The notes beneath the pieces are model-generated. The model worked only from the letters and a program-made list of their open reading frames with translations. It did no database searches and was not told where the DNA came from. A stretch of DNA of 64,000 bases from Candidatus Latescibacterota bacterium (GTDB taxonomy: Bacteria > Latescibacterota > UBA2968). Shown here piece by piece: positions 14,569 through 19,001 of this stretch (position 1 is its first letter; each line of letters opens with the position of its first letter). Made by a program: the position numbers and the translations under genes. Location: contig OZ241986.1 in the NCBI GenBank assembly GCA_965204375.1, forward strand, positions 1,632,001-1,696,000, written 5' to 3'.

Positions 14569-15081
14569 GTGGATTTAATGGGCTTTATTCGCGATGTGCC
14601 CGATTTTCCCAAAGCGGGCATTTTGTTTAAAGATATTACGCCTCTGCTCGGCGATGCGGATGCGCTTCGCGCGGCGATAGAACGACTGGCGCAACCCTAT
14701 CGCGATGGGGCTGTCGATCTGGTTGTGGGAATCGAGTCGCGTGGTTTTATTTTTGGGACTGCACTCGCGCGAGAACTCGACGTGGGCTTTGTGCCGATCC
14801 GCAAACCCGGCAAACTGCCAGCAGATGCGATTTCTGCGAAATATGAATTGGAATACGGAACTGATAAGATTGAGATACACACAGACGCAATCGCCAAAGG
14901 ACAAAAAGTCGCGATCGTGGATGATTTGCTGGCGACCGGTGGCACAATGGCTGCTGCGTGTCAGCTCGTATCTGAACTCAAAGGGAAAATTGTCGGTATC
15001 TCTTTTGTCATAGAACTGGGCTTTTTGAACGGGCGCGAAAAACTCGGGGATTGGCCCATTCACAGGCTGGTTCACTATTGA
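14569..15081 (+). CDS. apt: adenine phosphoribosyltransferase
   Basis: PDFPK.GILFKDITP, IRKPGKLP, LEYG, VDDLLATGGT. Confidence 0.96.
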   Translation: MDLMGFIRDVPDFPKAGILFKDITPLLGDADALRAAIERLAQPYRDGAVDLVVGIESRGFIFGTALARELDVGFVPIRKPGKLPADAISAKYELEYGTDKIEIHTDAIAKGQKVAIVDDLLATGGTMAAACQLVSELKGKIVGISFVIELGFLNGREKLGDWPIHRLVHY

Positions 15082-15094
15082 TATTATCATATGT

Positions 15095-15132
15095 GCCCCT
15101 GTAGCTCAGAGGATAGAGTAGCGGATTCCTAA
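15095..15132 (+). tRNA. tRNA-Arg(CCU) 5' exon (positions 1-38)
   Basis: GCCCCTG TA GCTC AGAGGATA GAGT A GCGGA TTCCTAA: acceptor 5' strand, D arm with A20, anticodon CCT. Confidence 0.93.
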
Positions 15133-17576
15133 GTGCGCCGCTTCACGGTAGGAGTTCCTACCCAGTAACTGGGTATGAGTTGCAGGATAACTCGTAGATT
15201 AACCGATTCACTGAAATCTGAAAGGAGGAAGGGAAAACAGCATATCGGTAAAGCTGGTGGACAGGACAACCACAAAGAATGTCGCACTGGCAAAATCTGT
15301 ATCCTATGATTAAGGCTAAACTGCTTGAACCTCAACAACCAGTGGGAGAAAACCCGCCTCCTCTTGGAAATGTGGTTGACACCAAGACCTCACAAGATTC
15401 TGAAAGGATTAGGAGTTCAGAATACCTGACAACGTGGGCACGACTTGCAGAGAGCGAGTATAAGGTAGTGAATGAGGAATCTAAGGGATACTAAACGGAA
15501 CTCAGACACGGAAAGCGGGAATACCTAAGTGTCGAGAGACATAAGGTATCGGAGCCTCCGTAGTAGTCAGAGAACGGGAAAGCCGTTTACAAGGCGAAGG
15601 GAGGCAGGTAAGTTCGACTGTAAGGACAAGGAGGGATGCGTAATGCAAACAGCCAAAACTGTTCTTGAGGTCATCCATCGAAGGGGAATGGAAGGTAAAA
15701 CGCTTGAAAGGCTTTACAGGCAATTGTTCAACGAAGAGATATACCTGAAAGCGTATGCGGAAATCTACTCAAACAAGGGTGGATTAACCAGAGGTATTAG
15801 TAAAGAAACGATTGATGCAATGTCAGTTAAACGTATTCATAGCATCATAAAACGTCTCCGAACTGAAACATACCGATGGAAACCAACACGCCGAGAGTAT
15901 ATCCCAAAAAAGGACGGCAAAAAGAGACCACTTGGAATCCTCTCTGGGGACGACAAGATACTCCAAGCTGTTCTTAAAACCCTGCTTGAAGCCTATTATG
16001 AACCGCAATTCAGTGACCGCAGTCACGGATATAGACCGAATAGAGGCTGCCACACAGCACTTCAACAAATTGGTAGAAAACACCATACGGTCAGTTGGTT
16101 CATAGAGGCAGATATAAGAGGCTGCTTTGATAACATCGACCACGACATCTTAATTGATATACTGAGCGATAAAATCAAAGACGGAAGGTTTATACGACTT
16201 CTCAAACATCTTATGAAAGCAGGATATGTTGAAGATTGGAAATGGCATAAGACATATAGCGGAACACCGCAAGGTGGCATCATAAGCCCGCTTCTGTCAA
16301 ACATCTACCTGAACGAATTAGATATATGGGCAGAGAAAGAACTTATGCCAGAATACAATCGTAAGCCAAAAAGCGGTAGGAAGAAAATGAACCCTGAATA
16401 TAAGCGATATGCCTATAAAAGAGGCAACGCCAAAAAGCAGGGCGACTGGAAATCCTACAAACATTACGGAAATCTGATGAAATCACTTCCAACAACGATA
16501 GAAGATGATAACTACCGAAAATTGGAATATATCAGATACGCCGATGACTTTCTGTTAAGTTTCGCTGGCCCTAAAAAGGAAGCTAACGAAATCAAAGAGA
16601 AGATCAGGAATTTTCTCAAGGATAGATTAAGACTTGACCTATCATTGGAAAAAATCCTAATCACTCACGCCAGAACCAAAAAAGCCAAATTCCTGGGATA
16701 CGATCTGCGAGTCAGACAATCACGGGAAAGGCGAGTAGCAAATGGATCAATATGGTTCGGGACACCAACAGAGAGCAAGTTGAGAGCCATAAAGAAATAT
16801 AGGGAGAAAAACAAGGCGAAAGTAAGATTTGAACTGGTCGAACTGAGTGACTATGATATAGTAACGCAGTATCAATCAGAATACAGAGGTCTTGCGAACT
16901 TCTACGTAATGGCTCACAACAGACATACCTTAAACAAAGTAAGGTGGGAAGCGGAAAAATCCCTAATACGGACACTTGCAAGAAAGCACCGAACATCGGT
17001 CAAAAAAACCTATATAAAATATAGGGGCAAGATGAACGGTCATGCGGTGATAAAGGTGCAAGTAGAAAGAGAAGGGAAAGACCCACTAACCACATACTTT
17101 GGAGGAATTTCCCTGAAGAGAAACCCATACGTAAAGTCTATAAAAGACGAGTACACGAACAATTGGATCAAAAGAAGTCAGCTTATAGAGAGACTACTGG
17201 TAGACCAATGTGAAATGTGCGGACAAGTGGGGAATATCGAAGTCCATCACGTAAGAAAGCTAAAAGATGTGAACATACCGGGAAAGAGGAACAAACCCGC
17301 TTGGGTGCATCGAATGGCAGCTATCAGACGTAAAACTCTGATGACCTGCGTAAAATGTCATAAGGCAATACACGCAGGTAAACACCTTACGGAATGGGAT
17401 GTATGGAAGAACTTACTGGAGAGCCGTGTGCATTGAAAGGTGCAAGCACGGTTCGGAGGGAGGGTGCAGGAAAAGTGACCTAAATCCGTTTTGGTTTGAC
17501 TACGATGGAGCTAATATAGCTCTCTAGTGGACAACCAAAACGGCATTAGGTCAAACTCGCTTGCTCCCTACCCTAC
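15133..17576 (+). mobile_element. group IIA intron (Ll.LtrB-like) inserted in tRNA-Arg(CCU)
   Basis: 5' GTGCG at 15133; domain V GAGCCGTGTGCATTGAAAGGTGCAAGCACGGTTC at 17421-17454; bulged A17570 at position -7; 3' end CCCTAC at 17576; removing it restores a full cloverleaf. Confidence 0.93.
15643..17436 (+). CDS. ltrA: group II intron-encoded protein (RT, maturase X domain, HNH endonuclease)
   Basis: LYRQLFN...AY..IYSNKG, RPLGI, SHGYRPNRGCHTA, WFIEADIRGCFDNIDH, GTPQGGIISP, YIRYADD, CEMCG..IEVHH..CVKCH..IH; ATG after GGAGG. Confidence 0.95.
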   Translation: MQTAKTVLEVIHRRGMEGKTLERLYRQLFNEEIYLKAYAEIYSNKGGLTRGISKETIDAMSVKRIHSIIKRLRTETYRWKPTRREYIPKKDGKKRPLGILSGDDKILQAVLKTLLEAYYEPQFSDRSHGYRPNRGCHTALQQIGRKHHTVSWFIEADIRGCFDNIDHDILIDILSDKIKDGRFIRLLKHLMKAGYVEDWKWHKTYSGTPQGGIISPLLSNIYLNELDIWAEKELMPEYNRKPKSGRKKMNPEYKRYAYKRGNAKKQGDWKSYKHYGNLMKSLPTTIEDDNYRKLEYIRYADDFLLSFAGPKKEANEIKEKIRNFLKDRLRLDLSLEKILITHARTKKAKFLGYDLRVRQSRERRVANGSIWFGTPTESKLRAIKKYREKNKAKVRFELVELSDYDIVTQYQSEYRGLANFYVMAHNRHTLNKVRWEAEKSLIRTLARKHRTSVKKTYIKYRGKMNGHAVIKVQVEREGKDPLTTYFGGISLKRNPYVKSIKDEYTNNWIKRSQLIERLLVDQCEMCGQVGNIEVHHVRKLKDVNIPGKRNKPAWVHRMAAIRRKTLMTCVKCHKAIHAGKHLTEWDVWKNLLESRVH

Positions 17577-17611
17577 TCCGTTGGTCGCAGGTTCGAGTCC
17601 TGCCAGGGGCA
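17577..17611 (+). tRNA. tRNA-Arg(CCU) 3' exon (positions 39-73; CCA not encoded)
   Basis: TCCGT TGGTC GCAGG TTCGAGT CCTGC CAGGGGC A: pairs with the anticodon and acceptor stems of exon 1. Confidence 0.93.
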
Positions 17612-17615
17612 CTTT

Positions 17616-19001
17616 GAGGTATATTCAAAAGTTGTGGATGAGTAAAAGAAAAGAGCGTATCCTATAGTATCACAAAAACCTAAAATCCCTCCAGGAGGGA
17701 GAAAGGACACGCTCGTGAAAGAATATACCCCATTTGAAGTGGAAAGCATAGTGCAAGATACACTGGCCGAGAGCCTCGAAGAAGTCATAAGAAATGGTGC
17801 GCGTAAGATGTTATGTGCCGCCTTGCGGTATGAAGTGAATGAATACATAGCCCGATTTGCTGATCAGGTGGATGAAAAGGGTCATCGTGAGGTGGTCAAA
17901 AATGGGTATCATCCTGCCCGAGAAGTCACCACTGGTATTGGTAAAATACCCGTCAAACAACCCCGCGTTCACGATCGTCGAGACGGGGAGCACTTCACCA
18001 GTGCGATCCTGCCTAAATATGCCCGTCGCAGTCCGAGCATTGATACATTGATCCCCACACTGTATCTGAAAGGGGTCTCTACCTCAGCCTTTCCCCAGGC
18101 ACTCGAAGCGATCCTCGGCAAAGGCGCACCAGGGCTTTCACCAGCCAATATCACGCGCTTAAAGCGTATTTGGGAAGACGAGTATAAACAATGGCAAAAG
18201 CGCGACTTGCACGATAAAGCCTATGTCTATATCTGGGCAGACGGTATCTATTTTAACGTACGCCTGTCTGATGATCGCCCCTGTGTTCTCGTGCTCATTG
18301 GTGCCACAGCAGAAGGTAAAAAGGAAGTCCTTGCCATAGAGCAGGGACAGCGTGAGAGCACCTTATCTTGGAAAACCCTCTTACTGGATGTCAAAGCACG
18401 CGGGTTGCGCCTTGCCCCTGCTCTTGCCATAGGCGATGGGGCAATGGGCTTCTGGCACGCATTGGAAGAGACATTCCCTGCCACGAAACATCAGCGCTGC
18501 TGAGTGCATAAGAGTGCTAATGTGTTGGATAAGCTACCCAAATCTGTGCAGCCGGATGCCAAGAGACTCCTTCAAGATATGTATCAGTCGCCGACAAAAG
18601 AGGCCGCGCACAAGGTCTATGACCACTTCTTGAGTCTGTATCAGGATCGCTATGAAAAAGCCTGTGACTGCCTCACCAAAGATTTTGAGGTGCTCTTCAC
18701 CTTTTATGATTTTCCTGCCAAACACTGGATCCATTTACGCACCACCAACCCGATTGAATCGACTTTTGCTACCGTCAGGCATCGCACGAGGCAGACAAAA
18801 GGCTGCGGATCGGTCAAAGCCACAATGGCGATGGTGTATAAACTGGCTCTTGAAGCTGAAAAAACATGGGTCAGATTACGCGGTTACAAGCTCATACCCC
18901 TCGTCATTGACGGGGTGAAATTCGTAGATGGTGAACGCAAAATCGCTGCATAATCATAAAGGATGCGTTCTAAACCCATCCACAACATTTGACAATATCT
19001 C
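17616..19001 (+). mobile_element. IS256-family insertion sequence with 9-bp target duplication
   Basis: Left end GAGGTATATTCAAAAGTTGTGGATGAGT versus reverse complement of right end GAGATATTGTCAAATGTTGTGGATGGGT; GGGCACTTT at 17607-17615 and 19002-19010. Confidence 0.92.
17715..18953 (+). pseudogene. IS256 transposase with one in-frame TGA (18501-18503)
   Basis: NGY..R...TGIG, LYLKGVST, IWADG, IGDG, QRC*VHK (normally QRCWVHK), RTTNPIES; both parts are in the same frame. Confidence 0.9.

Follow-up and report, generated by a model that had tools for sequence, protein, structure and literature searches.

A full-length and probably active class IIA group II intron in the only tRNA-Arg(CCU) gene found in a Candidatus Latescibacterota genome

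Results

The interrupted tRNA gene

The window analysed here is a stretch of 64,000 nucleotides (64 kb) of contig OZ241986.1 from a Candidatus Latescibacterota bacterium, and positions without a prefix refer to it. A group II intron of 2444 nt lies on the forward strand at 15133-17576 and separates the two halves of a gene for tRNA-Arg(CCU). When the flanking exons were joined by their coordinates, ARAGORN returned a tRNA-Arg(cct) of 74 nt with a cloverleaf and the anticodon CCT. Run with -i on the unjoined DNA, the program reported tRNA-Arg(cct) i(39,2444), with the intron between nt 38 and nt 39 of the tRNA. With default settings ARAGORN found no tRNA in the whole window (1-64000). As default tRNA finders are blank at this locus, the genome would be annotated as being without tRNA-Arg(CCU).

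The intron begins with GTGCG and ends with CCCTAC, as expected from the boundary sequences 5' GUGYG and 3' AY of group II introns. The last base of exon 1 is 15132 (...GCGGATTCCTAA), and exon 2 opens with TCCGTT at 17577. Rfam family RF00029 matched 17419-17576 over the whole model (1-77) with 60.5 bits (gathering score 40), and the match ended exactly at 17576. Near the 3' end were a domain V, in which the catalytic AGC triad is present, and a domain VI with a bulged A. The boundaries were fixed by the empty sites of related genomes: all eight loci fetched contained an intact tRNA-Arg(cct) (...GCGGATTCCTAATCCGTTGG...), which in two cases was identical to the joined exons. The exon halves were adjacent in 39 of 40 related genomes belonging to the same genus, family or order, while the fortieth, which is 91% complete, gave no match. 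The upstream flank of the tRNA gene is syntenic in the relatives.

ARAGORN detected 50 tRNAs in the single-contig genome of 6.34 Mb. The arginine set comprised CCG, UCU, ACG and UCG, and no second tRNA-Arg(CCU) was found in the genome by this program. The intron is present in one copy. AGG is a minor codon of the host, with 4.6 per 1000 codons and 6.8% of the Arg codons in 1159 long open reading frames (ORFs). When 168 genomes of the phylum were searched for the exon-intron junction, the genome itself was returned together with one match in genome G080, which was discarded as a chance match in non-tRNA sequence.

Intron-encoded protein and class of the intron

An intact ORF at 15643-17436 encodes a protein of 597 amino acids, with AAGGAGGG located 7 nt upstream of the ATG. 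Pfam identified RVT_1 (2.7e-37), Intron_maturas2 (2.2e-12) and AI2M-like_HNH (2e-12). The best relative of solved structure was LtrA (5g2x), which matched residues 5-576 with an E value of 4.6e-117. Other solved group II proteins reached 8.6e-40 or weaker and matched the reverse transcriptase (RT) part only; the protein of the IIB intron T.el (6me0) gave 3.4e-33. The protein is therefore of the mitochondrial-like (ML) type with RT, X and endonuclease domains. Together with a delta sequence directly 5' of exon-binding site 1 (EBS1; see below) it supports assignment of the intron to the ML lineage and class IIA. According to the available portions of two published descriptions, delta lies directly 5' of EBS1 in class IIA and pairs with the start of exon 2, while classes IIB and IIC use EBS3 (PMC3898094, PMC4424553).

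The G+C content of the intron is 43.5%, compared with 50.8% for the genome. AGG accounts for 11 of the 54 Arg codons of the intron ORF, a larger share than in the long ORFs of the host. The lower G+C content and the use of AGG are consistent with horizontal acquisition.

Pairing of EBS1 and delta with the exons

In domain I of the intron the strands ATTCTGAA (15397-15404) and TTCAGAAT (15416-15423) enclose the loop AGGATTAGGAG (15405-15415). Positions 15406-15415 are complementary to TTCCTAA|TCC of the joined exons, with nine Watson-Crick pairs and one G-U pair. The pairs assigned to delta are G15406-C17579, G15407-C17578 and A15408-T17577. Those assigned to EBS1 are T15409-A15132, T15410-A15131, A15411-T15130, G15412-C15129, G15413-C15128, A15414-T15127 and G15415.T15126. 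Both the stem and the ten-nucleotide pairing were found in the sequence exactly as the original prediction had described them. In the window the exact 10-mer has a single occurrence on the two strands taken together, namely in the EBS1 loop; with up to one mismatch there were four matches against 3.12 expected.

To extend the comparison to relatives, 5' parts were aligned where the 5' end of the intron could be placed by nhmmer, which gave 35 rows and, after de-duplication, 31 distinct introns. The hairpin homologous to 15397-15423 paired with positions -7 to -1 of its own exon at a mean of 5.74 of 7, compared with 4.57 for the exons of other introns. Match scores of at least 6.5 were reached by 29% of the pairs with the own exon and by 1.3% of those with exons of other introns. 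A covariance model of domains V and VI provided 3' ends for about 150 introns, and 58 introns had both ends. Rows with less than 14 nt of exon 1 or less than 4 nt of exon 2 and tandem intron-intron junctions were dropped, which left 50 rows including the window, or 45 distinct introns. EBS1 matched in at least 5 of 6 positions in 33 of these 45.

The bases 5' of EBS1 were compared with exon 2 in 33 introns and 1022 combinations. At least 1 nt paired with the own exon 2 in 94%, compared with 40% for the exon 2 of other introns; for at least 2 nt the values were 79% and 22%, and for at least 3 nt, the length found in the window intron, 39% and 12%. Since the relatives share kinship, these contrasts between own and foreign exon 2 are descriptive and are not probabilities. 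When the hairpins were folded singly, at least 5 of 7 EBS1 and delta positions were unpaired in 21 of 33 relatives, and all 7 were unpaired in the window. As the homologous loop pairs with its own 5' exon and the bases 5' of it pair with the own 3' exon, the loop corresponds to EBS1 plus delta as in class IIA. The relatives thus bear out the naming of TTAGGA as EBS1. The proposed 3-nt delta-delta' pairing of IIA type gains from the same excess with the own exon 2 in the 33 distinct relatives and from the full-length likeness of the protein to LtrA. An RNAalifold analysis of a MAFFT slice of the variable hairpins was discarded, as the loops were misaligned and three pairs only were obtained; the single hairpins and the whole subdomain were folded instead.

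Fold of domain I and the EBS2 loop

Folded to minimum free energy, the first 510 nt of the intron had a z score of -3.64, and none of 100 shuffled sequences folded as well. Domain I is closed by 15138-15143/15513-15518 in this fold and is followed by domains II and III. The EBS2 and EBS1 hairpins are placed in the distal multiloop of subdomain ID, where the EBS1 hairpin rests on the basal stem CTCAC (15389-15393)/GTGGG (15434-15438). The fold thus shows a multi-helix domain I with exon-binding loops, as is characteristic of group II introns, and the loop falls within the subdomain in which EBS1 was predicted to lie.

For subdomain ID an alignment was made of 20 of the 50 flanked sequences, which were chosen for diversity and lack of large insertions. 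In this alignment 88.3% of the cells were paired, compared with 71.1% after shuffling and 32-44% after sliding. Double changes were seen in 30 of 39 pairs, and the trunk helices were 97-99% paired with compensatory changes. The columns of the EBS2 stem were 76% paired. For the basal stem of the EBS1 arm, represented in the window by CTCAC/GTGGG, alignment A2 gave just 59% pairing, owing to a shift of register in the window and in the rows from outside the Dehalococcoidia.

The second exon-binding loop lies at 15349-15357, one base upstream of the 15350-15358 given in the original prediction. GCGG at 15121-15124 is complementary to CCGC at 15354-15357, giving four G-C pairs. When the homologous loops of relatives were compared with positions -14 to -7 of their own exons, contiguous Watson-Crick runs of at least 4 bp were present in 64% of the own pairs and 17.5% of the cross pairs, and runs of at least 5 bp in 42% and 4.1%. 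By homology the loop is the EBS2 loop of the family, and a contribution of EBS2-IBS2 pairing (IBS, intron-binding site) in the window intron is plausible. What was proposed for EBS2 thus held for the loop and for the position of GCGG, while the coordinates had to be shifted and the pairing amounts to just 4 bp.

Occurrence in public sequencing runs

The intron-bearing stretch was detected in 20 public runs from 10 studies of sponge, coral and other metagenomes. At least half of its sequence words were present in 14 of the runs, and six of the runs were RNA libraries. Contigs of sponge metatranscriptomes contained intron sequence. Contigs from three RNA runs and one DNA run were compared with the window; segments to which the RNA runs contributed no contig are uninformative either way. 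One contig of 582 nt from an RNA library corresponded to 15133-15714, was about 97% identical to the window and started exactly at the first base of the intron. Its depth was 41.7, compared with 7.6 over the ORF. The start and the depth of this contig give a weak hint of accumulating excised intron. The joints 15132 to 17588, 15109 to 17588 and 15118 to 17578 were rejected as evidence of splicing. Other letters stand between their two sides, which assigns them to the tRNAs of other organisms.

Relatives of the intron

A relative of the protein was encoded by 186 of 259 candidate stretches from genome contigs and by 347 of 516 from metagenome contigs, and the best 80 of each were kept. Among the best 80 of the 186 genome contigs the closest proteins were 54% identical (L003/L004), and that of L070 was 66% identical over the first 307 residues. 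The closest protein among the best 80 of the 347 metagenome contigs was 49% identical. The nearest relatives of the window intron, namely L003, L070 and the copies in the congeneric genome G016, reside in non-tRNA sites; the intron of G016 is a different one of ML type.

ARAGORN with -i was applied to 171 loci and found one further split tRNA, on metagenome contig L123 (90-2748). There an intron of 2573 nt, whose protein is 46% identical to that of the window, splits a tRNA-Leu(UAA) after nt 34. Its EBS1/delta loop TTTAAGTT pairs with GACTT|AAA. Among 139 relatives with flanks of at least 45 nt, L123 alone had the 3' half of a tRNA in its 3' flank. In a FastTree tree of 150 proteins the window protein grouped with L003 (local support 99) and L123 fell into a separate clade of 12 rows (support 97); both the window and L123 are on long branches, and their placement is unsure. 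The tRNA-Leu(UAA) of L123 provides one case for the original suggestion that relatives might be retargeted to other tRNAs. It is the sole case among the 139 and belongs to another clade, and the nearest relatives of the window intron lie in non-tRNA sites. On these sequences tRNA targeting appears to be rare and to have arisen separately.

Within the intron of L123 there is also a further complete gene for tRNA-Leu(UAA), 88 nt long (L123:647-734), which is located in domain IV upstream of the ORF and ends with CCA. It is identical to the split tRNA at 65 of 86 positions, has a different acceptor stem and holds the same target sequence GACTT|AAA; in the host gene CCA is not encoded. The inner gene could represent a spare tRNA that the intron brings along, or else a retro-copied tRNA.

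Other relatives differed in arrangement and length. Loci L009 and L010 (Dehalococcoidia) are head-to-tail arrays of introns of 2664 nt, in which the 3' end abuts the next GTGCG. Many Dehalococcoidia copies share the site ...GGCACCGGCAAGACCTTCA|TCGG..., which looks like a coding motif for Walker A. Introns of 2.9-3.3 kb were seen in L005, L012, L015, L017, L021, L033 and others, where 300-900 additional bases separate the ORF end from domain V. Even greater lengths were found for L070 (4023 nt) and L066 (4144 nt), and the protein match of L070 stops at residue 307.

Features of the locus and neighbouring elements

The features of the interrupted gene and of the intron are listed in Table 1.

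Table 1. Features of the tRNA-Arg(CCU) locus and its intron (positions in the window)
Feature	Position	Strand	Basis
tRNA-Arg(CCU) exon 1, nt 1-38: acceptor, D arm, 5' anticodon stem, whole anticodon loop	15095..15132	+	ARAGORN; identical to uninterrupted orthologues L086 and L087
Candidate IBS2 GCGG, tRNA nt 27-30, 5' strand of anticodon stem	15121..15124	+	Complementary to CCGC 15354-15357; 4 bp, weak alone
IBS1 TTCCTAA, entire 7-nt anticodon loop; anticodon CCT 15128-15130	15126..15132	+	Pairs with 15409-15415
Group II intron, 2444 nt, GTGCG...CCCTAC	15133..17576	+	RF00029; empty sites
Domain I (approximate extent)	15133..15518	+	Minimum-free-energy fold; closing helices 15138-15143/15513-15518 and 15152-15158/15497-15503
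EBS2 hairpin: stem GGAG 15345-15348/CTCC 15358-15361, loop AAAACCCGC 15349-15357	15345..15361	+	Homology to relatives' loop pairing with exon -14 to -7
EBS1 hairpin: 8-bp stem, 11-nt loop; delta GGA 15406-15408, EBS1 TTAGGA(G) 15409-15415	15397..15423	+	Complementarity; homology
Domains II and III (approximate)	15521..15605	+	Minimum-free-energy fold only; helices 15521-15526/15544-15549 and 15554-15559/15600-15605
Intron-encoded protein, 597 aa, RT, maturase (X) and HNH endonuclease	15643..17436	+	Pfam; LtrA match
Domain V GAGCCGT...ACGGTTC with AGC triad	17421..17454	+	RF00029 alignment; own model R1, 75.2 bits
Domain VI with expanded internal hairpin; bulged A 17570 candidate branch point; 3' end ...TAC	17455..17576	+	RF00029 alignment; UA unpaired in CCUACCC
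delta' TCC, tRNA nt 39-41, 3' strand of anticodon stem	17577..17579	+	Pairs with GGA 15406-15408; family-wide delta covariation
tRNA-Arg(CCU) exon 2, nt 39-74	17577..17612	+	ARAGORN; orthologues

Domain VI of the window intron measures about 120 nt, and an extended imperfect hairpin is inserted at about 17478-17552 between the conserved elements GGAAAAGTG and AACTCGC. The relatives keep a domain VI extension of the form GGAAAAGTG...AACTCGCC with a much shorter hairpin, and their domain V-VI segment measures 89-99 nt, compared with 158 nt in the window.

Directly after the tRNA gene, at 17615-18953, an IS256/Mutator-family transposase is encoded by two ORFs of the same frame that are split by an in-frame TGA (18501-18503). 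A segment of 25-31 bases at 17610-17640 recurs at four other places of the genome with 97-100% identity and may be the end of an insertion sequence. The sequence of the relatives downstream of the tRNA differs from the window in this transposase region.

A second LtrA-like protein with RT, maturase and HNH domains, 43% identical over the full length, is encoded elsewhere in the same genome (C1:3937672-3939336, corresponding to L174:2173-3837 on the minus strand). No group II ribozyme was detectable around it, and it is not another copy of the window intron. The gene lies directly downstream of a CRISPR (clustered regularly interspaced short palindromic repeats) array with repeats of 36 nt. The next ORF has a DVTQGF stretch, in which Pfam named no family; we take this stretch to resemble a motif of Cas proteins.

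Discussion

The intron is full-length and probably active. It is likely to be functional because the ORF is intact, the exons have not decayed and a contig from an RNA library starts at 15133. In the precursor RNA, EBS1 would pair with the complete anticodon loop, which forms IBS1, and the delta sequence GGA with delta', made up of the three bases that open the 3' strand of the anticodon stem. This pairing would position both splice sites, and the EBS2 loop could add four G-C pairs with the 5' strand of the stem. In retrohoming, a ribonucleoprotein of the excised intron and its protein with RT, maturase and HNH domains would find intron-less tRNA-Arg(CCU) genes through these same pairings. The suggestion that the intron is adapted to this tRNA agrees with the match of 10 bp and with empty sites identical to the joined exons. 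We put the probability of this reading at about 0.8, namely that a full-length, probably active ML/IIA intron occupies the sole tRNA-Arg(CCU) gene of the genome and that loop 15405-15415 is EBS1 plus delta; the intron would then splice, may still be mobile and may make use of EBS2.

Several observations weigh against this reading. DNA can be present in RNA libraries, and the true ends of a molecule cannot be read from contigs. The exact joint of 15132 to 17577 was present in one RNA run (X17) and one DNA run (X14); its flanks were about 91% identical to the window, so that the joints come from intron-less relatives and not from spliced product. They also support the boundaries of the intron. 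The single genomic copy gives no direct sign of recent mobility. Folded alone, the EBS1 hairpin had -6.8 kcal/mol and a z score of -0.67, and 48 of 200 shuffled sequences were equally stable. The stem is energetically unremarkable, and the significance of the hairpin lies in complementarity and homology rather than in stability. A run of 4 bp, as between EBS2 and IBS2 of the window, occurs in 16-20% of mismatched combinations of loop and exon, and the unconstrained fold pairs CCCGC with GUGGG rather than leaving it looped. An Rfam search of 15050-17700 with E values up to 1 gave no D1-D4 family in the 5' part and returned RF00029 and three chance-level matches only.

Three other explanations were weighed. 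The intron might be a dead relic that homed once and no longer splices; the tRNA-Arg(CCU) gene would then in effect be a pseudogene. The single copy of the intron, the assignment of the observed joints to intron-less relatives, the minor use of AGG and the presence of a gene for tRNA-Arg(UCU) all fit this explanation. tRNA-Arg(UCU) may read AGG by wobble, and the host might tolerate a dead intron. A relic is nevertheless unlikely in view of the intact ORF with all three domains, the equally intact GTGCG, domain V, bulged A and EBS1/delta match, and exons identical to functional orthologues. The spread of the stretch over 20 runs and 10 studies, with at least half of its words in 14 runs, and its presence in RNA libraries, including a contig end at the first base, also speak against decay.

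The site in the tRNA might instead be an ectopic one, reached by retrotransposition, with the natural target elsewhere. The short EBS2-IBS2 pairing and the non-tRNA sites of L003, L070 and the copies in G016 would suit such an origin. So would the lack of a second occurrence of the intron or its junctions in the 167 other genomes of the phylum and the top protein identities of 54% and 49% in the genome and metagenome scans (best 80 each). Ectopic sites of this family, however, typically have a degraded EBS1 match, as in L004 with 4 of 6 positions, while the window has ten contiguous pairs over the junction that include all of EBS1 and a 3-nt delta. A run of 4 bp for EBS2 is likewise found in the tRNA-borne intron of L123, which would fit an IBS2 in a structured stem. 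An ectopic origin is therefore considered highly unlikely. It would also be conceivable that the intron is IIB-like, that an EBS3 in another part of domain I reads exon 2 and that the complementarity of GGA and TCC is incidental, as none of the class-specific RNA models gave a match in the 5' part. This explanation is extremely improbable, given that the protein is LtrA-like over its full length and matches the IIB protein 6me0 in the RT part only, and that an HNH domain of the AI2M/AI1M type is present. The excess of pairing with the own exon 2 directly 5' of EBS1 throughout the family also corresponds to the IIA arrangement, as set out in the accessible parts of PMC3898094 and PMC4424553.

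The mechanism of the preferred reading, an active IIA intron with EBS1 and delta in loop 15405-15415, is the standard one of class IIA, and the unusual part is the bacterial tRNA as host gene. The intron resembles Ll.LtrB of Lactococcus lactis with its protein LtrA, the model of the IIA/ML introns, in the full-length protein alignment and in the order of RT, X and HNH domains. EBS2 and EBS1 in loops of domain ID with delta 5' of EBS1 are likewise shared with Ll.LtrB, as far as the IIA descriptions in the available portions of PMC3898094 and PMC4424553 extend. The host of Ll.LtrB, in contrast, is a conjugative relaxase gene, while that of the window intron is a chromosomal tRNA gene. IBS2, IBS1 and delta' of the window span the anticodon arm of the tRNA, EBS2 pairs over 4 bp only and domain VI is expanded.

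Group I introns of bacterial tRNA genes have as their hosts tRNA-Leu(UAA), tRNA-fMet and tRNA-Ile in cyanobacteria and proteobacteria. The tRNA-Arg(CCU) of Agrobacterium is also host to a group I intron. According to the part of PMC4033280 that was available, group I introns of bacterial tRNAs are self-splicing and lie in or beside the anticodon loop, a position that the window intron shares. They differ in that they belong to another class of ribozyme, lack a reverse transcriptase and recognize their exons in another way. The bacterial tRNA introns listed in the accessible parts of PMC4033280 and PMC4390854 are of group I only, and the tRNA-Arg intron of Thiomargarita is described as group I in the portion available of PMC4853749. 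In the available text of PMC4424553 and PMC13578239 tRNA-borne group II introns are mentioned for plastids only, and the former states that housekeeping genes are for the most part avoided by the group II introns of bacteria. The literature searched yielded no case of a group II intron in a bacterial tRNA gene; supplementary lists of host genes were outside this search and could hold one.

A complete and apparently functional IIA intron in the sole gene of an isoacceptor would be an exception to the avoidance of housekeeping genes. It would also be a natural system for retargeting, in which EBS2, EBS1 and delta read the whole anticodon arm of a conserved target whose empty site is available in 39 of 40 related genomes. 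On a wider and rather speculative view, which we hold to be possible but doubtful, ML/IIA introns entered the anticodon arms of bacterial tRNAs on two or more independent occasions, with the anticodon loop read by EBS1/delta. These introns would be the counterparts, still alive in bacteria, of those from which plastid introns of the trnK-matK type descended, and L123 would bring a replacement tRNA, that is, would be an intron carrying a replacement for the gene that it interrupts.

The intron might serve as a bacterial model for the origin of plastid tRNA introns. The plastid trnK(UUU) intron with MatK and the red-algal trnMe intron are likewise IIA introns with a maturase ORF in a tRNA gene needed by the host, as described in the available portions of PMC4424553 and PMC13578239. 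Those introns are organellar and vertically inherited, and MatK has lost the upstream RT motifs, according to the former source in the part available. The window intron, in contrast, resides in the tRNA-Arg(CCU) gene of a bacterium with a genome of 6.3 Mb, has kept RT, X and HNH domains and is absent from 39 of 40 related genomes. It does not share the features that define the trnK/matK type, namely an organellar location, immobility, a degenerate maturase and tRNA-Lys(UUU) as host, but it would work in a similar way.

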